DNA of 64,000 nucleotides. Source: Amphiscolops sp. MND2022 (lineage: Eukaryota). The notes under the pieces were generated by a model, which worked only from the letters and a program-made list of their open reading frames with translations, was not told the DNA's origin and ran no database searches. The position numbers and the translations under genes are program-made. Location of the stretch: assembly GCA_964187785.1 (NCBI GenBank), contig OZ076409.1:61382001-61446000 (forward strand), given 5' to 3'. Below are positions 28,001 through 64,000 of the stretch, one piece after another. The stretch's first letter is position 1. The number at the start of each line of letters is the position of its first letter.

Positions 28001-31000
28001 TCCCGTCGGGGCTCTTTCCATAGGTTAGCTGTGGTTTAAAAATTTGTTATGCCTCGTAAGATCTATCACCCAAGTTACCACACAAAAGCGTCCCAGACAG
28101 AAACGCCCAAATTACACAGTCAAAAGCGCCCCAATCAGAAGCGACACTTTACCACCAACAACTTGAAGTTCCTCACAGCAATTGAATAATTGTCAATTTT
28201 TCATTTTAAAACAAGCCTTGGCAATTGCTCTATTAAGAAATTAATATTTTTGTTCTCAAATGCCAAAATGAGCAAGTTGCCAAGTTTTTTGTGGATTGGT
28301 GTGTGAAAATGTCAGCATTGATATTACAACTGGATAATATGCTCAATCAATACATTCGATTCATTAATTTTAGGCAATAGAAACAGCTGAATTATTACAG
28401 ACCTTTTCGATTAGGGCGCTTTTTTCTGTCACACGACTGCCCCAGTTTTTCCATTTGTTTTCAACTTTACGCTGAGTCACTTGAGCATATGAAAAAAGAT
28501 TCTTCCAATCAACAGGAAAGGACTTGCCCTCTTAACGGAGTTTCAAGGCATGTTATTCGTGAATTTTAAGACTGTAACTTTGGGATTTCTTTTGGGTAAC
28601 AAAGTGGTGTGTCAAGTAGATTGGCAAAAATCCACCACCCTTTGTTTTATGAAATATGGGTGCCCCGTGTCTACAGGGTTCCCTATAGAAGTCTTATGTG
28701 AAAAGTACATTCACTTACGCCAAACGTGAGACTAATAGTTTTCTCAACTAGCTCTGAGCGAATTTTAGTAGCGAAATGCCATTAAATGATCTTCACATTA
28801 GAATTCATATCAAATGGTATTGAAATGGTAGCCAGCGCCATTTTGGGTTAACTAGTTTTCATAAAGCAAGATCTGTAATGTAATGAATTTGCAATGTTTT
28901 CAGCAGAATCAACCGCAGGTAAATTTGATCTATCCACTAGGGCATTCAATTTAGATGAGCGCTTTTGAACCAGAATTGACCTAGAATGTAGGAGGATCAG
29001 TGCACATATGTGTAGCACTGTAGTGTAGATACCATAGATGGTCACATATTTACCAAATGACACAAGCTCAGATCAAATTATGAATTTATTCGAAAATCAC
29101 AGTCGAAATGAAATTTAAAGTAAGATTGATGTTTTCAACTTGTTAAATTATTTTAACTGTGGATATTTTGACTGTGAAGAATGGATTGACATGAACCCTT
29201 TTCGTTTAAGAGTCGTTACAAGTGTTAATTTTGGACGTAATTTGATGTCCGTCAAATCTTTAATTATCAACAAGAGGAGAACGTCTCAAGATCCCGCTCA
29301 AGGCTCAAAAAGTGCAAAGCTTTAAAATATGCGCTGGGTTTATAAAGAAGAACGTCTTTTCCCAATTTCACGGGTGGACACCGCATAAGCAGTTCTGCTT
29401 TTCTGAGCGACATTATTGTCATGACCGAAAACATGGAAAAAGGAAAAGGGAACCCTTTGATGAAAAATTAATTTCTAAAAGTCGCACTGTGCCGAAAAAC
29501 CCTAAGAGGGGGACCGACCCTTCCGTCCAATATAATTTTGAGGAGATTGTAAGACTAGGTAAAACTCAGGCAACCCTTTCTCAACCATAAACTCATCCCT
29601 TTAGAATCATGGGGTACCCTTTAGAACTTAGGCTTAAAGTCTAAAAAGTGGACCATTCAGTGGGAGGTCTATGGTCTGATGAAACAAGACGAGAACGTCT
29701 AAAGTCGGAGCTATATCTAAGGCTCAAAAAGCACAAAACATTTTTTTTGAAAAAAAAACTTTCGGAAAATGTCGCATAGTGCCCAAAAATGTAAAGGGGA
29801 CCCTTTTTACCCACTCGGTCAGCCAAGAGGCTGACCACTCGGTCTCAATTTAAAGACTGGGCTCTATTTAGTCTCTATTTAATTGCCAGTCTCCATTTTC
29901 CCATATTTTTAGTCGGCGCTCCATGAAGTGAAACGCGACTATTATAGTGACTCTTTTTTGCCAATACACACGAACTGACCAAAATAGTTCTCAAAATTTC
30001 TACGAATTTTTATGGTCCCAAATTGAATAATTTGACATAGCGAACTGTACCAAAAAGGTTTTTCCTCTTCCGCGTTTCATACAATACCGAGAGAGATTAA
30101 AGGGTTCCCCATTTCAGTTTTTTTCCGGCATTGTGAGACTTTTTTTCGAAAATGAAGGATAACATCAAAGTACATCTGGGGATATATGAGCGTAGAACGA
30201 GTGCAAGTGTTACAAAAGAGATCAGCAAAATTGAAGGGGGACCCTTTGAAGACATTTAAAAAAATTTTCGAAAAAAAACGAAAAATGAGAATTTTGAAAC
30301 AGTCTCATAGTGCCGAAATCAGAGCTTTTTCTTCAGAAGGGGCCGCAAAAACTTTTGGGTGGTCATGAAAAAATTCTAAAATACACTAAATGCCCAATCA
30401 AACACTAACAAGACGGGAACGTCTAAAGTCGGCGCTATATCTAAGGCTCAAAAAAGCGCTAAGTTTTTTAGAAAAAGGCTTTTTGAAACTTCAGTTTGCT
30501 GCAAAATATCAAAAAACTTGAAGGGGGGACCGTTTGGCGACAAAGGAAAAATTTGAAAATTTTTTGAAAAAAATTCAAAAAAACGAAAAAATGAAAATTT
30601 TGGAAGTCTCACAGTGCCGAAAGACTAGAAAGGGGGACCCTTTGGGCTTTTTGAAACTTCAGTTTGCTGCAAAATATCAAATACTTGAAGGGGGACCCTT
30701 TGGCGACAAAAAATGTAGAAAAAAAGTCGCACAGTGCCGAAAAAATTCAAGGGGGCCTATAGTCTCGTCCGGTTTTGCATCTTACGTTACGTCCGGTTTT
30801 TATCAAGTCTCTTTGGTCTCTAGTTTGAGTATCAGGACGCTTTTTAGTCTCTATTTAGTCTCTATCCACTATCGATCATTTGGTCTCTATTTTCGGAAGC
30901 TTAGGATGGTCACCCTGCATTTGGGATTTATTGACATACATTCAGTTGCAAAAAGGCACCCTTTTGAGACATTAAAAAAATTTCGGAAAAAGTCGCACAG

Positions 31001-34000
31001 TGCCGAAAAAAAGCGATTGTTACAAAAAGCGATTAAAAACTGCTAGTTTATATTGTTTGGAAATTATTGCAATCTAACATGACTGCAGCAATGAAATATT
31101 TCAAGTCTGTGTTTTGATTGGCTGTGTGTTTGAATAAATTGTTTTTTTTGGTTGTCAGAAATTTTCATTCCATTATGGTATAAAATTGGTGGTGGATTTC
31201 CAAATAAGAAGAGCAAATAACTAAATTAGTTTCAATTAACAAAAATCAAAGGAGTTTTACTTTAAAAAATAAAATTGTGTACGAGAAAGTTTTAGTGGTC
31301 AAAAGCATTCACAATTGGAAAGATTCACTGAAAAAAGTATGAAAATTACTGATAGAATTTCTTGAGTTCGATTGTTTAACCAGGTATTCGGTTTCATTTT
31401 TGTTAAGTGATACTAATTTCATTTTTGTTAAGTGGCACTAATTTTGTTTTTGTTATTTGGTCTTTTGTTATTTGGTACGTAATCAAAATTGGTGTCTGCA
31501 ATTGCGCCTTCATGAAAAATTTCACTTTCGCCATAAAGAATCAAAAACGCGTGTCATTTTTGATCTTGTGTGAAATAAAAACAATACTTTTCCGTTTCAC
31601 TAGCTTCAAACCCCAGTTAGTAATTTGTGAGCACTGAGCACATCATCTTGTACATGGCTTCCAATTTGATCAAAATTAAGACCTGCTTCAATTGTTTGCT
31701 TGAAACGATCTGTTCGAATAGTTCAATGAATTTCCGGGCGAATATGTTTTTTTTTGCGGCCTAAATGTTACAACTGGAAATGCAATCATTTATTTAATTG
31801 ATAGTCAAAGTTTTATATGCCTGAGTAAGTTTGAATTGATTGTTATTTTGATTATTATATTATCTTTAATCCAACTGATTAAAAGATCTGTTTGAGTTTA
31901 GTAAGAATTTCGAATTATGCGTTTTTTATTTCTGCTTTCCTTTCATGTTTGTTGAGAAGGTAATCTCTTTCCGTTACTTGTTGATCTCAGAAAATGTTGT
32001 TCGATAGACGAGAAAAATTGTCTCTTGCAAGACTCTTGCTCGTTGTTGAGATGTTTTCAAACAACGATTTGAAAAAAAGCTTTAAATCATCGAGTTATTG
32101 CATCGAAAATTGCCAATTGTGTGAGCTTTGAAATGACTCGCAGTCGATTTCTAACCCACCTTCCGTCGTCTTTAATGATATAAGCAGACATGGCTTTAGA
32201 TTCATGCACTGTGGGTTTTTCGAATAATGATTTTGTTCATAATTGATGTTTGATTCAAGTATTTGGAGAATTGAATTTTACCCTCAAATATTGGGTATTA
32301 AAAATCAATCATAAAACCACCCAATGGGGCCGACCTTGGTTTTGGTTCACTTGTTTTGCCTTTTGTTACTCTCTTTGATAAATCATGACTTTGGAATGTG
32401 TTCAGGGCGTCCATCTATATTCGAGACAGTGTGACCCTACATCAGCTGAATCTGAAGTTCAACAAGTGTTGTGGAGGATTCCTCTGCTGTTTCTGCAACG
32501 AGACCAGAGATGCTTATGAGTACTATTCGCATAAACGCAGCCTCGTTCTGCACAAGATTGTCACTCGCATCAAAGAAAGACCCTTCGAAAAACGAACACT
32601 GCCCATGTTCTTTCTCACACTTCCATCCAAACCTGTGAGTTTAGTCTTCAGTGCCTTCCTTCCTCTCTCGTACAATCAAAAAACACAAACTTGTAAAATC
32701 AATGGAAACTTTCCGCTTTTTATGGTTGGCTGAAGAGGCAAAAGCTCAAAATTTATTCGATTCAGATGAGAGCCATTTGTTCATATTTCTGGTGAAGGTG
32801 GATTATCATTGAAACTCTAAAATTTTGCTTTCTTCTGTCATTATCGCTCACTGGTATTTTTCATTCAAATGCGGGGGTTTCTGTAGTGTGTGTCACGCTA
32901 AAAAGAAATAGAGCAGGAAAAATGTTTAAGCGTATTAGTCTTGTGGTGCCACGTTATACTGTCATGAATATCCATCCATGATTCATGGCTTGCCATATCA
33001 TGCACTGTGAATTAGATATCATCGACCCTCTAGGCAGCTAGGGGATGCTTAGTTGATATGAAGCGATCGAATATTCACTAAGCAATCGTTCGCTGACAGC
33101 TTCGCCTGTTTTCAAAAAGGAATGCAAAAGGCCATCACTATTTCTCATCATGCTTTCTTTGAAATTTACAACATTTGCACATCCTCAAAATTCAAATTAG
33201 GGATTATTTTGAGAATGGAGAGATTTGCTGCTGGAAAGACTCATAAATACTTTTTGTCCTAAAAGGTCGAAGTTTCAACTGAGTTTTTTAATTCATATAA
33301 CTCATACATGTATGGTACTTCTTTTGTTGCAGGCAGCGGACGCCATCTGCAACTACCTGCCTGTAGACGCAGCCCTGGTCACCCAACAGTGGGAGGTGTC
33401 GCTGGCACCCAATGTCGATGATGTCATCTGGGAGAACCTGTCTTTGAGCACTTTCAACAAGAGACTCAGATGGGTCATCGCCCAGATCCTCTTCACTATT
33501 CTATTCCTCTTCATCTCAACACCTTCTATCGTAATTCAGGTAACAAGTAAAACAATCTTGAACCCCAGGTGCAAGTTGGCAGCCCTTGTTGACACTCATG
33601 AAGAGAAGTCTCTTAAACATGGTCAGAGACAGTTATTGAGAAGCTTCTTATATCTCACGGTGCCGAAAATGGTTTACTTCAGGCTTGAAAAAGCGCTCTT
33701 TTTGTCCTAAAAATATTTAAAAAATACGAAAAAAAGGACCTTTTTGTGAAATGAAAAAAAAATTCAAAAAAGTTGCACAGGGCGACTGATAAACCGTCGG
33801 ACTTTGTAATCAGTTATGATGCTTCATTGATTTGAGTTGATCACATAAGTCCTCGAGTTGAATTGGCTATCCTTCTACAGGCCGATACAAACTAGTAATA
33901 AATGGTATTTGTTTTGTTCTGTTGACTTTTCACTCCACACGTTTTAAAATTAGAATTTCACCTAATTATACTAGAAACGTAATTTCTGAAACACTCTAAA

Positions 34001-37000
34001 CTCAGCTACAAATTTATGTAAATTTTCCATTTTTAGTCGGCGCTTTTCGTAGAAAACGCAGACTATAGCAGTGACTTTTTTAAGAACAACAGATTTTATA
34101 AGCTTTATAAGCTGGCTCCCACTAACTCTAACTGCCACACTAAACTGCTACTTCTACTGGCACTTGGCATAGAGGTTAATTAGGATTTTTTGAGGTCTGC
34201 CAAGTAGAAGGACGTGGGTTCCAGTGTCGCCCTTGACCAAAATTTTTTTGTGCATGTTATTGCGGCTTTGTGAGCTTTTTTTCGCAATTTTTTTAATGTC
34301 TCCAAAGGGTCCCCCTTCATTTTTTTTTCCATTTTGCAATAGAAAGGATGCTCAAAAATTCCAAAGGCCCACCTTTTACATTTTTCGGCACTATGCCACT
34401 TACCGGAGACTTCAAAAAAATTTCGAAAAAATTTTTGGAAATTTTTGTCCTCATTCGGGTACTGTAGAAGAAAGTACTTGACACTTAGAAGTCCTTTTGC
34501 TATTTTTGAGTCTTAGATATGTCGCCTACTTTGGCCGTTCCCGGCTTGTTGCACAGAATTTTACGCTTGTAGAGCGGGTTAAGGAAAAGTTGTGATTTGT
34601 TGTTTCAGAGAACAGAGGAGCTGAACAAGTACACAAGCTGGCGCGACCACCTGGAGAGGGTGCCTATGGTGCGTCTGTTCATAGCCCCTCTCATTTTCGT
34701 GATCCTGGCGGCCTTGCTGCCCTTCCTGATCATCCTGATCTCGGACATCAGGGGCTTCAGCACCAAGTCCAAACTCAATTACTACAACTACACCAGAGTG
34801 TACATCTTCCTCTTCTTCATGGTTCTATTCCTGCCTAGCATCGGTCTTACCAACTTGAAAGGTAAGCAAGTGGCAGACAGCACAGCACTGAGTTCAAAGC
34901 AGCTCATTAATCAACTGATTGGTTTCCACTTTTTATTGTTTCCAAAAATTGTATTTCAACAACTGTTCCTGGAAATTAGGTTTCTTAACATCATCGCTGA
35001 AATCTGTGCACTGTTTGTATTTTGGTATTCTGTAATTAGCGTAGAAGTGAAATTAGTGATTCTGGTGAATCTAAAATCAGTGGAATGAAGTGAGAAGTTG
35101 GAAAGTGAATTGATTCAATTCTAGCCGCGTGCATGTTTTAAAAGATAGCTATCTAATGAGGCTACGGCCGAGACACGTTTTGTGGTATTCAGAAAGTTGT
35201 TTGGTTTTTGCACATGACGAAGTCAATGTGCATTGCAGTCCAGCTAAGAAAGTTTTTTTTCCACAATAGTCAACTTCATAATGAGCGCCTTTTAGACAAA
35301 AGCCAAAACCCCTGAGAGATTCGAACCTGCAGCCTCCCGATTGCACGGCATAAGTGTTGACCACTGTGCCATAGGGACGTTATTGAACAAAGTTGAACTG
35401 TTGAATATATACGCATGCGATTAAAATAATATATATATATATACGCATATTAAAATAATGTCTTCGTCATGTGTTGCGAAGCACCGCTTCGCCTCTGTGT
35501 TAAAATTAGTCCTCCTACACAAGGAGGCGAAAGGGTACTGCATATGAGTTTTACATCTCGAAACTACATGGGACCGAAAGTTTTTTCGGCACTGTGCGAC
35601 TTTTTCGATTTTTTTTTCAAAATTTGCTCTGAGGCGAAAGGGTACTGATTATGAGTTTTACATCTCCTCGAAACTACATGGGACCGAAGGGTTTTTTTCA
35701 GCACTGTGCGACTTTTTCGATTTTTTTTTCTTACACGGCACTCTTATATTTGTGCGATTTTAATTGAAAAAACCCTGAGCATAGTTCAAATACTTTTCAC
35801 TTTTTGAACCTTCAGTGGGGCGCCGACTTGACGTTCCTGTCTTGTTCTCAATATTTGTCAGAAGGTTTATAATCTAGTTTCGAAGCCACTAGCGGAAAAT
35901 GGAGTGTTTCAAACATTATTATCAAATAGGGGCTCTGTTCTTTCATCACAGTACTACTGTGTTGTGTGTTGCAGGTCTAATTGAGGAGTTCATCAAAGAC
36001 GGAGTGGACCAGCTTCATTACAGCTGCATCTTCCACCCCGAGAACGGCGCCTTCTTCGTCAATTACGTCATCTCGGCCTCCATGATCGGGCTGATGGCGG
36101 AACTGCTGCGCATAGCAGACATGCTCTTCTACCTCATTCTACTCATACTCATGAAGTCCAAGGTTAGTTCAGTACAATTTGAACTGTACAATGTAGTAGC
36201 TGGCAGGCATTCCATTATGGAGCGACTATCAGTTATTGGTGAACTGGGTAGGATTGGTGCAAAGTTTGACATTTTAATAGGTTGTTCTCATTGAAACAAA
36301 AACGATCCAAGCCCCTTTACTCTTGAGATAAATTTTTCTCATGAATGAAAAAAGTGGATATAAGGTGTATCCAAAATGTACAAGGGGTATTTTTTTGTTA
36401 TAAAATGATTACAGTTGTACTGTTTATTTCTCAGGCCGAGCGTAAGTTTGTGAAGAAGCAGTCGATACTGCAATTCCCGTATGGCTACTGCTACGCATTC
36501 CAGCTGCTGGCTGCGTGCATTGTGATCGTGTACTCGCCCATCTGTCCTATCATGGCCCCGTTCGGCCTGTTCTACTCGCTGATGAGACACTACGTGGACA
36601 GATACAACCTATACTTCTCGTTCGAACCCTCCAAACTCAACCACAACATCCACAACTCTTCTTCATTCATTCTCCTATTCGCCGGATTTCTCAGGTAGTC
36701 GTCACTCCCTACTGACAACTGTACTTATGGCTGTGATAAAATGATTTGTGAAGTAAAAACCTTGCGACCAGAGTCAGTTTAGAACCTACACTGCTAGGAT
36801 CTTTGTTATAAATTAAACCGCGCGACATTGATCGTGCTAACAGTTTCTGAAAACATCATGGAAAATTATTGCCATGCTGCTGGAGAAGTTTTGGTGGCTT
36901 TTCAGAAAATACACATACTGATGTTATTGATTGGCATTTTATTGACATCCCTTTGGGCATTTTATTACACTTGCGATAAGAATGTTATACGAAACTATAC

Positions 37001-41690: not shown

Positions 41691-43352
41691 TGTAGAAATT
41701 TTTGCTAGAGGGTCGGAGAGAAATCCCAAAGGCTCGATTCTAACAGAAAGGTTTAGTTTTTAGTAAGTTTAGTCCACGTATCGCGTATTCTTTTCACAAA
41801 GTCTCTCCGGTGCTCAAGTTTCGACTCCAAAACACTATGGAAAAATTCCTTGCAATTAATACTCTAATTCAGGAATTATCTGGATATAACAAGTCGAAGG
41901 TTTCCACAGTATATAAACTCTCAATCAAATAACAATAGCACAGCAGGTGAATGAATTATATACAATAACTCGACAAGACTGTGCCAGAATCACGATTCAC
42001 TCAAAGATTTCCAAGTCCCGGTCTTGTAACTTATTCGCTGCTCTCACAAAGCAGTTAAGTCAAATTCGATCTCGAGTAGGTTTCTTGCCCGCACGCGGCT
42101 CAACTTACTCTTAACTTCGTAATTGTTCTTCTGTCTCACTTCGTCTCTTTTTCCCTCCCTAAGATATTTATTCATCAGCCGCATTTTTGTTGTACCGATG
42201 TCGCTCTTTTATTTGCATGCTTTTATAAATCATGTAATTTCATTCCTTTTATGGCATGGTAGCGCCCTAGTCATATTTCGGCCAGACATACTTCGCCGCC
42301 AACGACAAGTAATTCACATCTTGTCCGAAGTCCACATTTCAATAATAATTCAAGTCACCCGAGATTTTTTTAACATCGAAGAAATCGCTCAATGACCTTC
42401 AACTACATGGTTTACATGTTCTACACACGTAAGGGGTACTTTTCTATCATCCTAGGTGCAATACATCGCGAATCGTTCCGCCTGACTGAAATGCATAAAT
42501 TATCACTTAAAGACGCTGATTTACATGTTTCATTGTACGTTTTCCTATATGTTCCGGGGTTGCATCTAAAATGACCTTGAGGTCCATCCGTGACCTTGAA
42601 GTTATTTGTCCTCATCCCAAGTTGCTACATGCCAAGTTATATCGTCCTAGGGTCAATGGTTCCCGAGTTACATGATATCTGTATCGTTTATTTACTTAAG
42701 GCGGTTACCCCCGCATGGGTTACAAATACGGTTTCATTCACGTTAAAAATCGACTACATTCATCATTCCGGTTCGTTTGAGGTATTACAAGCCAAGGTCA
42801 ATGTCTATTATCGGTCGGGCTCGCGCGTCCGGTCCCGCGCGCCTTAAACAAACATTACTCCGTGCGTGGTGGATCGATTAATGTATATTTCATGTATATT
42901 ACTTAGGGTTACTAGGCGAACATCTTGGCTAAGTTTCATGATCCTCGGGTCATCCGGTGGCTATTTACATAACATTTGAGGTTTATTTACATAGGGTCCG
43001 TGCTCGTCCTACACGCGTCGTAGGGTTCCAAAAATATACGCAAAGGGCTTAATATCATATGGGCTATCGGTTCCATTTGTTATATGACTTATTCCGTGCT
43101 TGGCCGATGAGTTCGTAGGGGGGTCGACCTAGGTCACTTCCGGTGCTAATAGCTCGGGGCCGGGGGGTCTCGGCTCGGTTCCGTTTTCATAGGCGAGTAG
43201 CATAACACCTCAGGTATACGTGTGCCAAATTTCAGGTCTCTACGATAAATAGTCTTTGAGAAAATCCCGACTGGGGGGGGGGTTCGCCGGTTTTGTCACA
43301 CTTGGTTTTCCCGGGTGGTATCTTAGAATATTTTCGCTTGGAAGTGGGACTT
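41691..43352 (-). repeat. Downstream (3') long direct repeat / LTR, ~1.66 kb
   Basis: TGTAGAAATT...GAAGTGGGACTT on +; near-identical to 48157-49821. Confidence 0.95.
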
Positions 43353-43850
43353 GGTAAAATTCGCTCCAAGTGATCAACTCTGACTTAGTCAATTCGAATC
43401 GTTTCGTTGTTGACGTCGATTTCTACTTCGCTCAAACAATCAAATTTACTCTTTCTATTATTCGTATACCAAAACCATTAACGAAATACGTCTACTTCGC
43501 CTTTTCAGCTGTTTTCACCATTCCGACGGTTTTAAAACGTGATTAACATAGTCCTGCCTATCGTATGTACTTCGCGCAAAAATGATGGGATTTTTCTAAA
43601 ACGCCAAAATCTAAAAATTCTAACCTCTTCCCTTCTGGACTTTTATTCTCCCGAATAAACTTAGCGGTATTGTCGTTGGCTGAATCGTGGGATCTAGGTT
43701 AAACATATATAAATGTGGGGGGAGGATTCGGGATTGGTAAAAATGATTTCGGACTAAAAAATAACACCGATCGTTGATAATATGTACAGTGTTCCTGAAG
43801 GAGTATAGCATCGAATAAAAAAACAATTAAAATATCAAATAAAACATAAC

Positions 43851-44523: not shown

Positions 44524-44826
44524 ATGGCACAAGGTCCATTCCTATTGAGTCTGTATTGGGAATCTCAGTACTTCCGCGTGGTGTTCGAGATCACCCGTAT
44601 GGAAATTGCAGAGCATCACGAGGTCCAGCTGACCGTGGAGGGCGAATTGGGCGCGTTATGTCTGGACTACCTTAGCCCTGGTTGGGTAGAACTCGTCATC
44701 TTCCTGAGGAACCTCGCCACATCGGAGATTGGTCTGGTGGGAGTGCAAAAACTTCGTCTCCTCATTGCCCGCCAAAAACTCTGGGGTGCTCTGCGGGAGC
44801 CAACCCCTCCACATTTCTTTCTTTAA
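44524..44826 (+). CDS. Orphan 100-aa ORF inside the element (antisense to gag)
   Basis: ATG in AACATGG Kozak-like context; GC-richer than its flanks; MAQGPFLLSLYWESQYFRVVFEI... Confidence 0.45.
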   Translation: MAQGPFLLSLYWESQYFRVVFEITRMEIAEHHEVQLTVEGELGALCLDYLSPGWVELVIFLRNLATSEIGLVGVQKLRLLIARQKLWGALREPTPPHFFL

Positions 44827-45459: not shown

Positions 45460-47961
45460 TTAAGCCATCATCTTCTCACGTTTGTACGGTCCAGTGGTAT
45501 CCGGCTGAGCCGCTCCGCGTTTGACTGACCACAATCCTGCGTTCTCGCTCCTCTTGTGTCGGAGAGACCGCAACCCTCGCTCCTTGAACTTTCCCAGTTC
45601 TGATTGTTGGTTCCTGTCGAACCAGTCGTCAATGTACTCCGAGCTGGAAGGTGTCGGCGAAGGGCGTTCTCCCCTTCTGCTTCCAACTTCTTCGACGTCA
45701 GTCTCGCAATTGGGAGTCGGGTTCTGCTGAGGGACTACATACACTGTAATAGCTACGTGACTCCCTTTGAAGACGTCTTTAATTAGGCTTCGTATTTCAC
45801 TCCAATTCAGTTTATCCAACCCACAGTCCATCCTCGGCAGGCTTATTCTGTGGACCCCAGACCACTCCGCGTGAGTTCTCATCTGTTGCAGCGACGTTTT
45901 CACGGATTCGTAGGTCGGTTTCTCGAAGTATCGTTGTTTGGTGACCAAGTGATACACGTAACGACGTTCTCCTTCAATCCACTGCGCAAAAACTGGCTGT
46001 CTCTTGTGGTCGACGTCTTCCGGATAAGTAGTGGGATACCTCGTTTTGACTTGCTTGGCAACTCCGATCCCCATGTGGAAATCTGCCGAAACACAGTGAG
46101 CCAAACAACCTTTGGACGAAAATAGGTCTCCCTCGATCTCTTTGTACTTCAGGTTTCCGCGTTCAACGTCGACGTCATCATCGCCAAAAAGTGTAGTCTG
46201 TCGAGGTTTCAGGGTAGTAACGATGGAGCATCTGCTGCGATCACACCTGTACTTAGACTCTGTTGTCGATACCATGCGGAAATCAGCATTTGCGTCGACT
46301 ATCATTGCGTCCCAGCGCCTTGGTGGCGGTTTCTCTCCGGAACACCAGCTTGGATTCCTGCTCTCGGGAGCGCTCAAGTGCTGAGTGGAGGATGCCGACC
46401 AAGGAGGTTCAGTCTCCGCGCTTTCACGGCTGTCACTGGTGCTCCGCGGGTAACAACTTCCTCCGTCTTCGCCCCATTGCGATGCAACAACTCTCATTTT
46501 CAGCGGTTCTGAGGGCAGAGGAGGTATGGACAGTTCGTCTTTCCCAAAGTCAAAAATAATTCTATGGTTTTTCACGAAGTTCAAGCCTAGAATAACGGAT
46601 GGCTCGCAGTGGGGAACCACCACAAATTCTTCTTGCTCCTTCAAGGGTCCCAGCTGCAAATTTAGTCGGGTTAATCCATTAGTCGTCACTGGTTGACCGT
46701 CTACAGACCGCAACTCTCCACGAAACTTTTTGACCTCATCAGGGGTTCTAAGCGATTCCATTGTACTTGAGTCCACCACGTTCACGCCAGCTCCCGTGTC
46801 CAACAAAATGTCCATCTCTCTTCCCTCGATTCGGGCTTTCACGAAAACCCCGCTGTTACAACCAGAACAGTCTACCACACGCACAGCGTTCAGCGCCTTT
46901 CTTTCAATTGCTAAGCCGGCCCTCTCAACAATTTGTGCAGCTTTCTCTCTTGTCAACTTCCCGTGCACCTCAGGAGCGTCTTCGACCATCACCTGCCGTT
47001 TGGGGCATTGCTGGGGAAAATGTCCAAAACCATCGCAAACAGGGCAAATATCGGCTACAAAACCGCCATTTCCCTTGAATTTTCGTTCGGTCGCCACAGG
47101 GGTGGCCTCACGTTTGGGTGGGTCTGTCATCCCAGCCTGCTTCTCAGGCCTCACAGTTGTTGACAGAGTTTCCATGAAAGTCATCATCATCTGCGTCATC
47201 TCGTCCATTCTTCTAGTGAGCTGTTGTAACCCTTCTTTCCACGGTTCGTCTGAATAACCACGGATGTCACGACATGAGTCTTGCTGCCTTCCAAACTCTT
47301 CGTACCGCTCTTGTTCATTCCGTGAACGGCCACGTGTTGTTCGAGTAATAACTTCCAAGTCAACAGCCCTGTTCACTAGATCCCCAAATGTTTGTGGGTT
47401 TTCTTTCAACAACTGAACTTCCAGTTGTACATCGCTCAAACCCTCGAGGAACTTCTCGCGGAACAACTCGTCTCTCGTGTTGGGGTCCTTCTCTGAGTAG
47501 GCAATTTTTCCAATGTTTCTCACTCGTCGGGCAAATTCCCTCAGGGTTTCCTCTGGTTGCTGTCGAAGTTTTCTAATTTCTGCTTTCCCCAGACGGTCAT
47601 TTCGCATCATCCCCATTTCTCTACCCAGGTAATTGAATAGTGCAGCTAACGTAGGTGCATCTTCCCCATCCACTTGCTCTCTCAGTTCTCGAGGCGCAGC
47701 GTTGTACTCGTCCAATGCGTACCCAATCAAGCACACAGGCACAGCTTGCAGACCTTGCAACTCAGTCCATCCGTTGGCTCTGCCAACTCTGTAAAAGTGC
47801 GTTTTCCATTGGGACCAATCTGGATAGTTCTGAGAGGGGAAGCTGTCAGGTCTGATTGCTCCATTGCCAAACAGCCGATTCTCATTCCCGTTGAGGCCCT
47901 GTATCACCCCTTGGGCGACAGCCTCCATTATTGCAAGTCGCTGTTCGTCTTCCATACCCAA
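45460..47961 (-). CDS. Gag (CCHC knuckle) - retroviral-type aspartic protease - TARG1/OARD1 (Poa1p-like) macrodomain polyprotein, 833 aa
   Basis: Gag motifs W..HF...ANGW and LRQQPEETLREFARR; CPVCDGFGHFPQQC; LLDTGAGVN...ILGLNF. Macrodomain GDLF..LAHCVSADFHMGIGVA...HLVTK..EKPTY..SL..M...SLPRMDCGLDKLNW...ITVY at ~45740-46155. Confidence 0.9.
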   Translation of the reverse strand: MGMEDEQRLAIMEAVAQGVIQGLNGNENRLFGNGAIRPDSFPSQNYPDWSQWKTHFYRVGRANGWTELQGLQAVPVCLIGYALDEYNAAPRELREQVDGEDAPTLAALFNYLGREMGMMRNDRLGKAEIRKLRQQPEETLREFARRVRNIGKIAYSEKDPNTRDELFREKFLEGLSDVQLEVQLLKENPQTFGDLVNRAVDLEVITRTTRGRSRNEQERYEEFGRQQDSCRDIRGYSDEPWKEGLQQLTRRMDEMTQMMMTFMETLSTTVRPEKQAGMTDPPKREATPVATERKFKGNGGFVADICPVCDGFGHFPQQCPKRQVMVEDAPEVHGKLTREKAAQIVERAGLAIERKALNAVRVVDCSGCNSGVFVKARIEGREMDILLDTGAGVNVVDSSTMESLRTPDEVKKFRGELRSVDGQPVTTNGLTRLNLQLGPLKEQEEFVVVPHCEPSVILGLNFVKNHRIIFDFGKDELSIPPLPSEPLKMRVVASQWGEDGGSCYPRSTSDSRESAETEPPWSASSTQHLSAPESRNPSWCSGEKPPPRRWDAMIVDANADFRMVSTTESKYRCDRSRCSIVTTLKPRQTTLFGDDDVDVERGNLKYKEIEGDLFSSKGCLAHCVSADFHMGIGVAKQVKTRYPTTYPEDVDHKRQPVFAQWIEGERRYVYHLVTKQRYFEKPTYESVKTSLQQMRTHAEWSGVHRISLPRMDCGLDKLNWSEIRSLIKDVFKGSHVAITVYVVPQQNPTPNCETDVEEVGSRRGERPSPTPSSSEYIDDWFDRNQQSELGKFKERGLRSLRHKRSENAGLWSVKRGAAQPDTTGPYKREKMMA

Positions 47962-48137
47962 AGCGTTACTTCAGGCACCAACTAGTTGCAATAGAGAAAC
48001 GTCTCTGTTCTGTTGTACAAGAACGTTCTCAGTCGATCAACCTCATCGGATAATGTGCTTGTTTTGATCGCGTCGTGAAGGGATTACAGCTAAGTCCCAG
48101 TAAACATTTCCAAAATAACAGCGATACAACGAAAATT

Positions 48138-48155
48138 GCCCACCCAGGAGCGCCA
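48138..48155 (-). promoter_or_regulatory. Primer-binding site (TGGCGCTCCTGGGTGGGC)
   Basis: Begins with TGG one nucleotide after the repeat end ...TTCTACA on the minus strand. Confidence 0.75.
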
Positions 48156-48156
48156 C

Positions 48157-49821
48157 TGTAGAAATTTTTGCTAGAGGGTCGGAGAGAAATCCCAAAGGCT
48201 CGATTCTAACAGAAAGGTTTAGTTTTTAGTGAGTAAGTTTAGTCCACGTATCGCGTATTCTTTTCACAAAGTCTCTCCGGTGCTCAAGTTTCGACTCCAA
48301 AACACTATGGAAAAATTCCTTGCAATTAATACTCTAATTCAGGAATTATCTGGATATAACAAGTCGAAGGTTTCCACAGTATATAAACTCTCAATCAAAT
48401 AACAATAGCACAGCAGGTGAATGAATTATATACAATAACTCGACAAGACTGTGCCAGAATCACGATTCACTCAAAGATTTCCAAGTCCCGGTCTTGTAAC
48501 TTATTCGCTGCTCTCACAAAGCAGTTAAGTCAAATTCGATCTCGAGTAGGTTTCTTGCCCGCACGCGGCTCAACTTACTCTTAACTTCGTAATCGTTCTT
48601 CTGTCTCACTTCGTCTCTTTTTCCCTCCCTAAGATATTTATTCATCAGCCGCATTTTTGTTGTACCGATGTCGCTCTTTTATTTGCATGCTTTTATAAAT
48701 CATGTAATTTCATTCCTTTTATGGCATGGTAGCGCCCTAGTCATATTTCGGCCAGACATACTTCGCCGCCAACGACAAGTAATTCACATCTTGTCCGAAG
48801 TCCACATTTCAATAATAATTCAAGTCACCCGAGATTTTTTTAACATCGAAGAAATCGCTCAATGACCTTCAACTACATGGTTTACATGTTCTACACACGT
48901 AAGGGGTACTTTTCTATCATCCTAGGTGCAATACATCGCGAATCGTTCCGCCTGACTGAAATGCATAAATTATCACTTAAAGACGCTGATTTACATGTTT
49001 CATTGTACGTTTTCCTATATGTTCCGGGGTTGCATCTAAAATGACCTTGAGGTCCATCCGTGACCTTGAAGTTATTTGTCCTCATCCCAAGTTGCTACAT
49101 GCCAAGTTATATCGTCCTAGGGTCAATGGTTCCCGAGTTACATGATATGTGTATCGTTTATTTACTTAAGGCGGTTACCCCCGCATGGGTTACAAATACG
49201 GTTTCATTCACGTTAAAAATCGACTACATTCATCATTCCGGTTCGTTTGAGGTATTACAAGCCAAGGTCAATGTCTATTATCGGTCGGGCTCGCGCGCGT
49301 CCGGTCCCGCGCGCCTTAAACAAACATTACTCCGTGCGTGGTGGATCGATTAATGTATATTTCATGTATATTACTTAGGGTTACTAGGCGAACATCTTGG
49401 CTAAGTTTCATGATCCTCGGGTCATCCGGTGGCTATTTACATAACATTTGAGGTTTATTTACATAGGGTCCGTTCTCGTCCTACACGCGTCGTAGGGTTC
49501 CAAAAATATACGCAAAGGGCTTAATATCATATGGGCTATCGGTTCCATTTGTTATATGACTTATTCCGTGCTTGGCCGATGAGTTCGTAGGGGGGTCGAC
49601 CTAGGTCACTTCCGGTGCTAATAGCTCGGGGCCGGGGGTCTCGGCTCGGTTCCGTTTTCATAGGCGAGTAGAATAACACCTCAGGTATACGTGTGCCAAA
49701 TTTCAGGTCTCTACGATAAATAGTCTTTGAGAAAATCCCGACTAGGGGGGGTTCGCCGGTTTTGTCACACTTGGTTTTCCCGGGTGGTATCTTAGAATAT
49801 TTTCGCTTGGAAGTGGGACTT
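48157..49821 (-). repeat. Upstream (5') long direct repeat / LTR, ~1.66 kb
   Basis: Near-identical to 41691-43352. Confidence 0.95.
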
Positions 49822-59345: not shown

Positions 59346-62300
59346 TTCCCCCCTCCTCGGGATTGATATAAGCGATCTCAATTCTCGCCGGGTTTCTTGT
59401 TAGTTCCCGTCTTTGTTGTGTTCTTTGGGCTGCGGCGGGAGACGTTGGCTTTTCCGATGTTCTTTGACTTTGGATCTAAAGTCAAATTTTATTAGAAATA
59501 TTCTATTCCTCCCATTTTTACTACTCTTTTTGCAGATTTTATTCTATCTGATCTGCGAATCCCTTTTCTCCCACTTTGTTTTCTGTATTCTCCCCCCCGT
59601 CTAAATTAAGTTCTACTACACCTCTATTTGGGGACATGTGTATTTTTTGTGGCGATCCAGTTGGGGTGTTGTCGAAATCCTTAGCAGTACGCTTTGTTTT
59701 CTCCGTACTGCAGTCCACTGGTGGAGATATGGCGGGAGTTTCGTTATCTCGAGTCTCTTCTGTTGGTTTCACGGCATCGTCGTATTTAATTTCGGCCGTG
59801 ATGGTTAATTCCGGATCAATGTTTGCCGTGCTCGGTAATTCATCCGCGTGTGATGACTGGCTATCGGATATTACCGTGATGTCCGGTCGTGCTTCAGGCC
59901 TTTCAATTGGCATTGTGGGAATTGTTTTGTCTGCGCTCGTTGATTGTCCCTGTTGTTCGGAACGGATTCTTTTGTGTGTGTCACATAGATCATCATGGCT
60001 GAATCGGCCGCATCTGGTGCATCTGTTGGTGGGTTTCCTCGGCTCTTCTGTTTTCTTTGCTGGCTGAAATTTAAGGGGGTTAGATGCTAGTTTTTTGTGG
60101 ATAACTTTTCCATCGGTTATGTTATCGTATGTTTAGTCTCAATAGCTGCGGTTAAAATTTTATTGGTTTTGAACCTGCATTTCATAGCATTGGGCTTGGT
60201 TTCCTTTTAAAAAAATTGGTAACTTTCAAAATTGTCTCTTACCGATCTACCCCTCTTCCTTGATTCATTGAGGACCAAGTAGTCTGCAAGTTCCCCGTCG
60301 GAATCATGGACTGTAAAAACTTGTAGCTCCGCCGGTTGTGCTAAAATATAATTGGTTAATGTTTTCTTCCAGTCCGCTAAAAGGCAGGTGGGTTGTCCAA
60401 TCAGATTGGTGATCGGTGTGCGTGGTTTTCTTCCGTGATGTAATTTAAAGGGAATCATTTTCAGTGTGTTATGTGGTGTTTGTCTAATTGTTTTAATTGC
60501 CCTTGCGACGCTTTCTTCAAAAGTTAGGCCGTCTTCTAAATTGGCTCTTGTTGATGACTTAATTGTGCGTATTGTTCTCTCGACCAATCCGTTTCCCGTA
60601 TGTAAATTTGGGGTACATCTAATTTGTTTAATGTTTTCACCGTTGCAGTAACCTTTAAACTCGTTGCTTTTAAAACAGCTACCGTTGTCGGTGCGTATCG
60701 TTTTCGGTGTTCCATTGTCGGTGCAGTATTTTGTTAAAAATTTTATTACGGTCCGAGAGTCCGTATTTTTACAAATTTGTGCGGTTGGCCATTTGCTAAA
60801 ACGGTCGATGGCAACTAAAATGTAAATGTCTCCCCGCGATTTTGATTTGATTGGACCGGCGAAGTCCAATTGGATTTCTTGGCCGGGTTCGGTTAAAAGT
60901 TCGAGCCTATTTATTTCCGTTTGCGGTAATTGTGTTTTTAAATTCTTACCTGCTACTCGGCAACTGGGGCAGTTTTCCGCCTTTTCTCTAATGTCCCGGT
61001 GTAGTCCCGGCCACCAAAATGCTTCTGCTGATTTATCCATTTTGTTAATAGAGACATGGCCGCTGTGTAGCATGGCAATTATGGTTGACTGAATTGCTTC
61101 TGGGATGACGATTCTATCATTATAGAATAGTAGTCCAAATCTGGTCTCCAGGTGCTCACGGTGTGGTCGGTATGGGTAGAAGATACCGTCTCCTTTTCCA
61201 GCTTCCAGCGCGATGATTGCATCAAATATTTTAGCGTCTTGCGCAGTTTCCTCAACTAGTAGAGATAGATCCATGGAAAAGATTGATGCTCTCATGTTTT
61301 TTGAACTTTTTGAGGATGTTCGTTGGACACTTTTCGGTTTTTATATGGCTAATCTGGCTTTCGTTGTCTGACGAGGTATTTATCCAAGACTCGTGTAAGT
61401 TTTCATTAAATTCCCTGAGTGGGGTGGTCCCGAGTTTCTCGCAATGGTAAAAGAATCTATTGTAAATCAAGATGTTTAATTTCTCAATTTTTTTTCGATC
61501 TTGTTGCGAAGGACGATATTCCAATATCTGCTCGTTGTCCTTGCCTTTTCCCACAATTCTGGTTCGATTCGGTTGGAGAAGTTTAAATCGTTCAGTCCGT
61601 AGGCGGCTAGTTTCTGGGGAGTGTCCCCGTTTTTAAAGATAAACTGTAAATCGATTCCGTTTACTCTATCCATCTTTGACATTTTCGGTGCTTGCGAATC
61701 AAAGTTTGAATTGTTTGGTGAGTCAATATCTTTTTGCGGTGAGAAAGTTTGGATTGAATGTTCGCAGTTGTTTTGTTTGCGTACTTGCGTTCTGCGTTCT
61801 GATTGGTCGGAATTCTTTACCAGTGGTGGTCGCCGCATGTGTTGCGTAATACTGCCGTTCGTACGATTGAACTCGAATAGGCCGTATATCTGATTGATTA
61901 CGAATTCCTCTTCGGCTTCGCTTTCATCGCCTTCGTGTGGCGTTTCCGTTTCGTGTTCGTGTATGATCGGATGACGGCTTAAGTAATCTGTTAATGGAAT
62001 GTTTTTACCAGCGGTATATTGCACGTTGACATCGAAATGGCTCAAGCGGTCTAGCCACCGCGTTAATCTTGAGCTGTACTGTTTGTGCGCCCTGTTTCGT
62101 TTTAGCAGTGGTTGTAGTGCCTGGTGGTCGGTCAAGAGGTTTACTTTTTTTCCGTAAACGTAGTATCTAAAATATTCGAGGCCCCATAAGACGCCTAGTA
62201 ATTCAAGTTCATTTATGGCATATTTTCGTTCACATTCGGTGAGAAATCAGCTGGCAAACGCCACCGGCTAAAAAAGTTTCGTTTTCTTTCTGCCATAGGG

Positions 62301-64000
62301 TTGCCCCTAATCCGGTATTACAAGCGTCGGTGGTTATGAATTTATCTTTCTTTGGGTCGAAGTGTGCTAGACATGGTGTTTCGGTTATTTTCTTTTTTAG
62401 TTGTTCAAAATCATCGTTTATTTCTTTTGTCCATTCCCATTTTACGTCTTTCTTGAGTAGTTTTCTTATTCTATCGGTCTTTTTAGACAAGTTGTTCAGA
62501 AATTTTGATAAATGTTGTATCGAGCCCAGAAATGATTTTAGCTCTTTCGTGTTTGTGGGGGCTTTTAATTTTGTTATAGCCTCGGTTTTATCTTTAATTG
62601 GCTTTACCCCTTCTTCGTTTATCAAGTACCCCAACCAGGTTAGCTCTTTTTTGAACAGTTCTGTTTTTCTTTCACTCGCTCGGTAACCGGCTTCTTGCAA
62701 TTTTGTTAGAACTTCGCGTAGTTCCCGATCGTGTTCTTCTATTGTTCCGTTTGTGACGCAAATGATGTCATCTAACCATACCGGCGTTTTAAATTCTAGG
62801 ACCTTGTCTATATGTTCTTGAAATACCGTTGGTATGTCTGATAGGCCGTAGAATCCCTTCTTGAACCGGTAGTGTCCCATGAAATCGCCGCCAATAATGG
62901 AGACCACGCAATGTCTTGATGCTTCTGCGGATAGTTTGGCCTGTCCGTATGCATAATCTAAATCAATCTTGGACATCCAAATTTCGCCGTTATTTTGTGT
63001 ACTTTTTGCATAAATTTGACTGATTAGTTCCTCCATATTTGGCATTGTTGCTTTTCTTTTTTTGCAAGATTCGTTTAGTTTCCGAGAGTCTAGTGCATTT
63101 TTTACTGATTTGTCTTTTTTGATTGTTATAACGGATGGTGAGACAAAGCAGTTTTCAGTTGTTTTATCGGCTTTTTCCAAATGTCCTTTTTCGATTAATT
63201 TATCTAATTCTTTTTTCACAATTTTTTGAAAGTGTATTGGTACTGGTCTCCCCTTTTGTTGTATCGGTTTTGCGTCTTTTTTCAATTGAATGTCTATTGT
63301 TACGTTTTTTATGGTGTGATTGTTTTTTAAAAAGTTCTCGAAATCTTTAAAAATTTTCTCACCTTGTTCGTTTGTGGTTATGCTTCTGATGATGTTTGTT
63401 TCGCGGCTTCCTTGCAAACCGATTTCCAATTTATCTAGCCAATCCAATCCCAGCAGGGGTTGTGTATTCTTTTTCTCAGTTATTAGGATTGGCAACATCA
63501 CTTTTGTTTTCTCTGTTTTGACCTCAACTATTGCCTCGCCTTTGAATTCTATCGGGTTTTTGTTTACGTCCACGAAACACTTTGAAGTCGCTTTGAGTTG
63601 TTTTGGAGTGATAATTGGTGGGATAATCGATACTGGAGAGCCGGTGTCAATTATGAATTCAATTGGTTGTCCATCCACCAATAGGATGGCTTTGTAGAAG
63701 TCTACTCGATTTATGCCGTTGACGGACTGAATGTGGTCAATTTTTGGCCATGATTCCGTGTTGCTACCGGTATCTTCCTCTTGTATCCGGTTTACGGTTC
63801 TTGATCGGCAGACCTTTGCAAAGTGACCGGACTTTTTACAGTTGTTGCATTTCGCCTTCCGTGCTGGGCAGATGTGGTCGGGTGTCCAGCTGGATTTTCC
63901 GCAGAAGTGGCAATTTCGCTCCGTGTTTTTCTTTTTAGCCATGAACGTGGCCTTCTTCTTCGTTGCGGGTTTTGTGTATCCGACCTGTTCCTCGTCTGAT
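58631..64000 (-). mobile_element. Ty3/gypsy (Mag-like) LTR retrotransposon, frameshifted, truncated by the window end
   Basis: Tandem Cys-His knuckles, protease IDTGS, RT (KIDLDYAYGQ, WLDDI), RNase H (TTDAC, TDHQAL, DYLSR) and integrase (H..H, WWPG, CPSC, QLDFAGP, RTDNGS, NGLVER) in gypsy order, split across ORFs 62230-63942, 61476-62135, 61252-61554 and 60207-61295. Confidence 0.95.

Follow-up and report, generated by a model that had tools for sequence, protein, structure and literature searches.

A Pol-less Ty3/gypsy family of Amphiscolops that joins Gag-protease to a TARG1-type macrodomain, and its very probable env-bearing helper

The element described here, in a 64,000-nucleotide stretch of Amphiscolops sp. 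MND2022 DNA (contig OZ076409.1, positions 61,382,001 to 61,446,000; hereafter the window), is a copy of a Pol-less Ty3/gypsy family that has more than 100 copies and encodes a single Gag-protease-TARG1-type protein. We are highly confident that this family is a satellite of one env-bearing Gag-Pol family of the same genome. Its macrodomain is under purifying selection, and we slightly favor a role for it in counter-defence; the explanation as a whole, in which a helper-dependent family would use the domain as an eraser of host ADP-ribose, is one that we hold with modest confidence. Non-autonomous LTR elements are usually seen as pure parasites with hardly any coding value. Here an enzyme domain is maintained, selection on it is as strong as on the capsid and protease, Gag sets its dose, and the helper lacks it.

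The coding region of the window copy is a single open frame on the reverse strand (45460-47970, 836 codons from stop to stop), and all features below lie on that strand unless stated. Counted from the Met at 47955, the Gag-protease-macrodomain ORF (45460-47955) has 831 aa; the sequence-only reading had given one uninterrupted ORF of 833 aa, in which the single frame was right and the length included two codons upstream of the Met. Frame and domain searches agree with its proposal that Gag, a CCHC knuckle, a protease and a macrodomain stand in one ORF. The capsid region (aa 30-235; 47251-47868) has an omega of 0.26 and is sister to the helper Gag at a support of 99/99. Since Pfam names neither Gag nor the knuckle in the satellite protein, its Gag identity rests on homology: the satellite Gag is 53% identical to that of the helper, and its identity to another Gag, one that does match Retrotrans_gag, is 29% (E 2e-9). 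The zinc knuckle (aa 304-317; 47005-47046) is recognized by its pattern only, its ligands being kept in 44, 45, 46, and 46 of the 46 intact ORFs. The aspartic protease (aa 370-470; 46546-46848; omega 0.43) matches Asp_protease_2 (PF13650, E 2.4e-10 with the whole window ORF), and its DTG (aa 386-388) is present in all 46 ORFs. A Ser-rich linker (46156-46545; omega 0.68) separates protease and macrodomain, as had been noticed, with a length here of about 130 aa rather than 120. The macrodomain (aa 601-740; 45736-46155), placed at about 45740-46155 in the sequence-only reading, is complete and is followed by a 91-aa tail. The linker has no Pfam match, neither linker nor tail matches any of the Pol and Gag proteins compared, and no cleavage site for release of the macrodomain was identified in the satellite protein.

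The genome holds 111 matches to the macrodomain, and we examined 108 loci, 106 of them flanked by both LTRs. Probes for RT, RNase H, and integrase matched none of the 108, while the same probes find Pol elsewhere in the window; therefore, the lack of RT and integrase first seen in one copy is common to the family and not a one-off deletion. A frame of at least 800 aa is kept at 49 loci and missing from 59. The LTR pairs have a median identity of 99.3% (85 scored), and 5-bp target duplications flank 25 of 39 scorable copies. Such duplications, together with an autonomous partner that has the same LTR and primer binding site, uphold the idea that the element borrows Pol in trans. An outside protein (P0016) has the same architecture at 63% identity.

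Selection was measured on the 46 intact ORFs of the 108 loci. A codon model gave the macrodomain an omega of 0.37 (p 3.5e-15 against 1, in a likelihood test that recombination can inflate), well under 1, and pairwise dN/dS ranged over 0.15-0.30 for the macrodomain, 0.16-0.20 for the capsid, and 0.40-0.72 for the linker.

The assignment of the domain to the TARG1/OARD1 type is supported by phmmer, fold model, and conservation. Among PDB sequences, phmmer placed human C6orf130/TARG1 at E 1.5e-28 and DarG at 2.5e-5; the Pfam Macro profile scored 18.2 bits, below its cut-off of 22, and is absent from the whole-ORF report. An AlphaFold model built from a 31-row alignment reached a pLDDT of 88.6 and was used instead of the single-sequence fold, which was poor (52.8). 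With this model, Foldseek ranks 1-8 were all TARG1 (best TM 0.84), with DarG next. The satellite domain has about 36% structural identity with human TARG1 (PDB IDs 4J5S and 2EEE), with which it has the motifs AHC-S-D, KPTY, and GCGLD in common; unlike the human protein, it is embedded in a Gag polyprotein, and of the three basic residues that bind RNA in TARG1 it has just one fixed. With TARG1 numbers transferred via the phmmer alignment, Lys673 and Asp714 of the window protein correspond to Lys84 and Asp125, the catalytic pair of TARG1 according to PMC9411070. As anticipated, both are retained, being invariant in the 46 ORFs. Of the RNA-binding positions Lys50, Arg86, and Arg126, only that of Arg86 is conserved (45 of 46 ORFs); the Lys50 position holds Thr or Met with basic neighbors, and the Arg126 position Lys in 21 and Gln in 25. 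TARG1 itself is reported to remove base-linked ADP-ribose from RNA (bioRxiv 10.64898/2026.03.31.715305). The domain is probably an active hydrolase in most satellite copies.

The window copy is probably a damaged member of its family. Asp710 occupies the first Gly position of GCGLD, as the sequence-only reading noted; this holds for the window copy and is not a family trait, Gly being present in 45 of the 46 ORFs and in 125 of 137 outside relatives carrying the motif. The window copy also has a short 5' LTR (48157-49821), without the first 270 bp or so into which other copies extend. Its two repeats align over 1,668 bp with 99.16% identity, close to the 99% estimated at the outset. The full LTR, seen at the 3' end (41691-43624), measures about 1.93 kb; a 1.67-kb LTR with an AGT start was rejected on the longer extent in other copies.

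A search for an autonomous partner with the same repeats and primer binding site led to an env-bearing Gag-Pol family, with a Gag of 347 aa, TTTAAAC in the gag-pol overlap, a Pol of 1,420 aa (PR-RT-RH-IN), and an env-like ORF. It has 25 RT matches at ≥93%, 15 of them with Pol frames of 1,407-1,420 aa, and satellites outnumber it by about four to one. The primer binding site of the satellite (48138-48155), 18 nt complementary to the 3' end of tRNA-Asn(GUU), is the same in the helper; this tRNA-end sequence has 379 genomic matches, and two of three scanned are tRNA-Asn. The polypurine tract (43625-43636), directly upstream of the 3' LTR, lies in a region common to the helper. A 34-bp junction of LTR end and primer binding site is identical at 73 places, both families among these. 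Over the family, satellite LTRs are 81-95% identical to those of the helper (96.5-100% in the best 200-bp windows), and in three segment trees the LTRs of the helper fall within those of the satellite. The proteins are 53% identical in the capsid and 34% in the protease. At least three Pol-less families have the U3 and primer binding site of this one helper, two of them without any macrodomain, and no macrodomain match was found in 14 helper stretches. Env-bearing families of 12.7 kb, whose Pol macrodomain is 50% identical to that of the satellite, are not helpers: their primer binding site and LTR ends differ and they have no DNA match to the satellite.

That macrodomains occur in other retroelements, as the sequence-only reading cautioned, is correct both here and outside this genome: several of its autonomous gypsy families carry one between RNase H and integrase, as do outside Pol proteins. 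The satellite differs in that its macrodomain lies outside any RT-RNase H-integrase Pol. The novelty lies in a macrodomain fused to Gag in an element that has no Pol and whose helper has no macrodomain. In the literature consulted we found no Pol-less Gag-protease-macrodomain element; repeat-library tables (e.g., Repbase, Dfam) could hold the family.

The host has two TARG1 candidates, L188, an intronless 315-aa frame, and L210, a two-piece match 6.7 kb apart. In a tree that included the candidate host gene L188, the satellite macrodomain stood away from it and grouped with the gypsy Pol macrodomains of this genome (support 100/99, 97/96, and 95/92). A clade with this candidate, as a recent capture of host OARD1 would give if L188 is the host gene, is rejected (p-AU 0.003), and an origin from the degenerate macrodomains of the helper's own clade is weakly rejected (p-AU 0.029, with long branches). 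As far as these sequences allow, the domain most likely derives from a different gypsy lineage of the same genome, where it would have stood in the spacer between RNase H and integrase. TARG1-like domains of relatives outside this genome are fused to repair enzymes (ligase, PNKP, XPG, UDG, and NADAR), and one outside Pol (P0085) joins its macrodomain to a Tpt1/KptA domain.

The mosaic of satellite and helper LTRs leads us to infer co-packaging and template switching. Satellite RNA and Gag would enter particles with helper Gag-Pol, the helper RT would prime on tRNA-Asn, and the helper integrase would insert the satellite cDNA. The in-frame fusion would put one macrodomain on every capsid subunit; by stoichiometry, the dose of an in-frame Gag cargo is far above that of a frameshifted Pol. 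Once freed by the element's own protease, as predicted, the macrodomain would likely erase host ADP-ribose marks on particle RNA, cDNA, or proteins.

An eraser role for the domain would mean that retrotransposon particles are subject to ADP-ribosylation. Such action is established for RNA viruses and phages. In the literature examined, its one link to retrotransposons is the silencing of L1 by SIRT6-KAP1 (PMC4695847). The host genome has 32 PARP-domain matches, and all four long frames scanned are ZNFX1-type helicase-PARP fusions; a DarT family search found no match in the host genome but none in any control genome either, and is therefore uninformative. The helicase-PARP genes are tied to the element by co-occurrence in the genome only, and the case for a PARP-versus-retrotransposon conflict in this animal is circumstantial. 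It is conceivable, and we say so tentatively, that the satellite repays its env-bearing helper by supplying at capsid dose a TARG1-type eraser that the helper lost, directed against nucleic-acid marks made by an expanded host family of ZNFX1-helicase-PARPs. If true, this would be a helper-satellite division of labor in an animal; it would also offer a first example of nucleic-acid defence by PARPs against LTR retrotransposons, attacker and defender being encoded by the same genome. The macrodomain is not required for transposition here, because the helper is young and intact without it, and because one related family (Pol of about 1,330 aa) lacks it and three others have only degenerate ones. 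That two further families with this LTR and no Pol have spread while lacking any macrodomain likewise counts against the need for an eraser.

Moreover, the selection and the intact catalytic pair are also compatible with a reader or with a hydrolase that does housekeeping. The macrodomain as an ADP-ribose reader would tether Gag or particles to ADP-ribosylated granules or chromatin, much as chromodomains guide some gypsy integrases, with catalysis incidental. Transposons often capture chromatin readers, as bioRxiv 10.1101/2021.11.30.470311 describes, and in the autonomous families the domain directly precedes integrase and often has degenerate catalytic motifs. In the satellite, however, it has no integrase attached, and the Lys/Asp pair never varies in the 46 ORFs while adjacent positions do; we consider a reader unlikely. 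Nearly the same low probability goes to a hydrolase that is active but does housekeeping for replication: it would strip accidentally formed ADP-ribose adducts, or metabolites, from cDNA, RNA ends, or the tRNA primer, and no specialized host defence would stand behind it. The repair-enzyme fusions, the Tpt1/KptA coupling of P0085, and selection that is purifying overall rather than diversifying all suit this role. Yet the helper performs the same reverse transcription without a macrodomain, and gain and loss across gypsy families, with a shift to Gag-level dose, suit conflict better.

A decaying deletion derivative, with the macrodomain as a passenger kept for polyprotein folding, would explain the 59 loci without an 800-aa frame and an order of protease then macrodomain that equals Pol with RT-RH and IN excised. 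This reading is largely refuted, and we think it very improbable: no close parent was found (macrodomain identities drop from at least 73% to 51%, those of Gag from about 80% to 53%), P0016 repeats the architecture, and a C-terminal domain that one stop could remove keeps a low omega and invariant active-site residues. In other systems an overproduced divergent Gag can poison particles, but maintenance of the family for host benefit, as a dominant-negative Gag restraining the helper, is just as improbable given young dispersed insertions, differing target duplications, and a satellite excess over the helper, which indicate selfish spread.

The TR-GAG elements of plants, as described in PMC9784723, have two LTRs around a Gag region, lack RT and integrase, and are mobile in trans. 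The satellite resembles that description in its two LTRs, primer binding site, polypurine tract, Gag, trans mobility, and lack of RT, RNase H, and integrase; it departs from it in its animal host, in-frame protease, selected enzyme cargo, antisense gene, and identified env-bearing helper. The soybean pair of Du et al. 2010 reportedly comprises an autonomous and a non-autonomous element that swap LTRs, the LTRs staying in step and the internal regions differing. Satellite and helper LTRs are likewise kept alike by recombination over diverged internal regions, whereas here at least three Pol-less families share one helper's U3 and primer binding site, one of them with a macrodomain that the helper lacks. 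Fish epsilon-like ERVs are also LTR elements with a macrodomain (PMC4977317, citing Basta et al. 2009); according to that account, they are, like the gypsy families, autonomous, with the domain in Pol or an extra ORF, while the satellite has it on Gag-protease. As a compact test set, this genome combines gypsy families whose macrodomains are intact, degenerate, or absent with three satellites that share a helper, and it encodes helicase-PARP proteins that are candidate writers.

Finally, a 100-aa antisense ORF on the forward strand (44524-44826), overlooked in the initial reading, lies between the coding region and the 3' LTR. Retand elements are described as having antisense ORFs before the 3' LTR (PMC11963269); the satellite ORF is similarly placed and conserved and, unlike those described there, has no match to TRP28 or any other Pfam family. 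The helper has an antisense frame of its own, of 287 aa and resembling an integrase zinc finger (E 0.0018); the two are unrelated. The satellite ORF is intact at 71 of 108 loci, has a pairwise dN/dS of 0.17-0.49, and has homologues in both other Pol-less families.

In the window copy of the satellite, a Pol-less Ty3/gypsy family, positions 45460-47970 of the minus strand form a single frame of 836 codons, which yields 831 aa counted from the Met at 47955. The sequence-only reading had described one ORF joining Gag, CCHC knuckle, protease, linker and TARG1-type macrodomain between repeats of ~99% identity, and these points were borne out. This minus-strand ORF comprises a Gag region, a match to the CCHC pattern at aa 304-317, a protease of the aspartic type (DTG at 386-388; Pfam E value, 2.4e-10), a 130-aa linker, the macrodomain (aa 601-740) and a 91-aa C-terminal tail. 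The macrodomain matches human TARG1 (E value, 1.5e-28) and DarG (2.5e-5); its model, built from a 31-row alignment (pLDDT 88.6), retrieves TARG1 at structure-search ranks 1 to 8 (TM 0.84), and its score against the Pfam Macro profile is below the cut-off. The flanking repeats are 99.16% identical; by comparison with other copies the full LTR is 1.93 kb, and the window 5' LTR lacks its first ~270 bp. An 18-nt primer-binding site (PBS) matches the tRNA-Asn 3' end, and a polypurine tract directly precedes the 3' LTR. Elsewhere, the window holds a degenerate Bel/Pao element (16232-19798, minus strand), a degenerate gypsy pol unrelated to the satellite (59539-63320, minus strand) and exons of an OSCA/TMEM63-type channel gene (23221-35088, plus strand; PHM7_cyt and RSN1_7TM matches).

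A genome search with the macrodomain gave, among the best 150 of 978 candidates scored, at least 111 rows at 73% identity or more, the other 39 lying at 41 to 51%. We examined 108 loci, namely, the window copy, a set of 39, 60 of 68 further listed matches and 8 others. Probes for RT, RNase H and integrase matched in 0 of the 108, extending to the family the Pol-less structure claimed for the window element; the same probes recover degenerate Pol elsewhere within the window. Both flanks have LTR sequence in 106/108 loci, a frame of at least 800 aa survives in 49, and the LTR pairs have a median identity of 99.3% (at least 99% in 58 of the 85 loci scored). A 5-bp target duplication was found in 25 of the 39 copies with both ends callable, part of the misses being tandem arrays. 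From the probe negatives, target duplications and LTR-pair identities, the family is young, dispersed and Pol-less throughout. The outside protein P0016 is built in the same order and is 63% identical to its best local match, so the arrangement predates the present burst. Four pairs of copies adjoin each other 6.4 to 7.9 kb apart (L049/L054, L050/L052, L060/L065 and L130/L131); at least some are tandem dimers with one common LTR, and one pair is bounded by a single 5-bp duplication.

The autonomous partner with common repeats and PBS that the sequence-only reading had envisaged was also found. In a Gag genome search, identity falls from family level to 32 rows at 51 to 53%, which include one autonomous family, the helper. 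It encodes a 347-aa Gag, a 1,420-aa Pol (PR, RT, RNase H and integrase) and a further ORF with a weak, below-cut-off Baculo_F match (E value, 2e-4); the gag-pol overlap contains TTTAAAC, presumably a -1 frameshift signal. A search with the helper RT gave 25 rows of at least 93% identity, of which 15 lie within frames of 1,407 to 1,420 aa, and no macrodomain match was found across 14 helper stretches. At 73 places, satellite and helper both included, the 34 bp that join LTR end and PBS have the same sequence. LTRs of the satellite (40), the helper (4 of 7 tried) and the second satellite (6) were aligned; over most of the alignment windows, satellite and helper are on average as similar as satellites are to one another, and identity in the best 200-bp windows is 96.5 to 100%. 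The helper LTRs fall inside the satellite LTRs in 3/3 segment trees, with partners changing between segments. Coding identity is 53% in capsid and 34% in protease, and satellite Gag is sister to helper Gag (support, 99/99). Such ancient coding divergence with continuing LTR exchange is as expected from co-packaging, which we infer, and template switching; PMC6894440 reviews how recombination accompanies reverse transcription. In some helper copies (L183:2400-3260 and L184:243-1103), the stretch separating env from the 3' LTR contains an antisense ORF of 287 aa, part of which resembles an integrase zinc finger. Most of the 379 primer-tRNA pattern matches come from a big array on contig C7 in which the 3' end of tRNA-Asn is repeated in tandem (47639203-47691870 and beyond).

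The macrodomain probably has another history. It is 43 to 50% identical to domains lying between RNase H and integrase in two env-bearing gypsy groups with a different PBS, and clusters with them in three trees (100/99, 97/96 and 95/92). The sequence-only reading had proposed a tree with host OARD1; a clade with the host candidate L188 is rejected (p-AU 0.003). Three helper-clade families have a degenerate macrodomain at the same Pol position, a fourth and the helper none; a clade with these degenerate domains was weakly rejected (p-AU 0.029, long branches). The trees and p-AU tests make it likely that the satellite is a chimera, with Gag and cis-elements from the helper clade and the macrodomain from another gypsy lineage. 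Among outside relatives, Pol probes match 10/146 new representatives, Gag/protease probes match one, a member of the satellite family, and 2 further long Pol proteins carry a macrodomain. Given these Pol matches, macrodomains are not rare among retroelements; among the sequences examined, the satellite family and P0016 were the only cases of a fusion to Gag without Pol. The young env-bearing families (L070-L087; ~12.7 kb; RNase H-macrodomain-integrase) also encode a DnaJ domain (E value, 1.5e-8), which lies in their fourth ORF. The outside Pol P0085 joins a C-terminal TARG1-like macrodomain to a Tpt1/KptA phosphotransferase domain, putatively eraser and writer together. L188 itself (contig C1, 46.43-46.45 Mb) is a frame of 315 aa that lacks introns and has a TARG1-like domain at its end; adjoining it, L209-L210 form another TARG1-like sequence, split into two parts with 6.7 kb between them.

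We lean toward the following chain as a whole. The satellite would make a Gag-protease-macrodomain protein that, with its RNA, shares particles with helper Gag-Pol; tRNA-Asn would prime reverse transcription, helper integrase would insert the cDNA, and one predicted eraser per capsid subunit would rid the RNA, cDNA or protein of the particle of ADP-ribose. The strongest points against a defence role are the helper and two sister satellites, all of them successful although they have no macrodomain. As for possible writers, PARP domains were matched at 32 places in the genome; at least eight of these lie in open frames of more than 1,300 aa, some of them clustered. Four of five PARP stretches examined have long frames, and all four are intronless ZNFX1-type helicases of ~2,000 aa fused to one or two PARP domains (L211:33-5975 and L215:638-6124 on C4, L212:606-6803 on C13 and L213:1-6240 on C8). 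In two, inspection by eye finds the catalytic positions of the first PARP domain occupied by His, Tyr and Glu. ZNFX1 acts in RNA sensing. The fusions are a candidate RNA-directed ADP-ribosyltransferase family and candidate writers, linked to the element only by co-occurrence in the genome.

Selection was assessed on 46 of the 49 long frames, those with an early Met. Equivalents of the TARG1 catalytic pair, Lys84/Asp125 (PMC9411070), are kept in 46/46, as anticipated for the window copy. Set beside this pair, a macrodomain acting as reader or tether seems unlikely. A housekeeping hydrolase is a shade less probable again. RNA bases are a further substrate from which TARG1 strips ADP-ribose, aided by three basic residues (bioRxiv 10.64898/2026.03.31.715305), one of which alone is fixed in the satellite. 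In pairwise comparisons (five divergence bins), dN/dS is 0.15 to 0.30 for the macrodomain, 0.16 to 0.20 for capsid, 0.20 to 0.33 for protease (0.75 in the closest bin) and 0.40 to 0.72 for the linker; codon-model omegas are 0.37, 0.26, 0.43 and 0.68, respectively, all from intact frames only, with post-insertion neutral changes counted in and recombination ignored. The macrodomain is thus under purifying selection (omega = 1 rejected, p 3.5e-15), and that it is a mere passenger is very improbable; so, to the same degree, is a satellite acting as a host-serving decoy. The Asp noted for the first Gly of GCGLD is real in the window copy and is not a family trait (1/46), and all 18 scored motif residues are intact in 34/46 frames. 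This unique Asp and the truncated LTR make it probable that the window copy is a damaged member of a sound family.

LTR swapping between elements has reportedly been described already. TR-GAG-like elements (PMC9784723), antisense ORFs in LTR elements (PMC11963269) and macro ORFs in fish ERVs (PMC4977317) are likewise on record, so that each ingredient, including retroelement macrodomains, is known. Their combination was not found among the papers listed in a literature search; the available text of PMC9503650 mentions neither TARG1 nor transposons.

A 100-aa ORF antisense to the main ORF (44524-44826), missed by the sequence-only reading, is intact in 71/108 loci, absent from 29 and partial or broken in 8; its dN/dS is 0.17 to 0.49, and a Pfam search gave no match. 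Two more Pol-less families, both with this antisense ORF, have the PBS and the LTR's U3 in common with the satellite. The second family (L094, L097, L098, L100, L102, L104, L203-L205 and L208) encodes Gag and a ~450-aa orphan acidic ORF with the motif W-x-S-H-R-K-H-G-R-W-K, and retains the TTTAAAC site. The third (L192-L201, L206 and L207) has a single ORF of 840 to 1,005 aa, matching no Pfam family, that starts with a distant Gag-like region and ends in the same motif. Among the Pol-less families, the macrodomain family alone has the helper's full U5.
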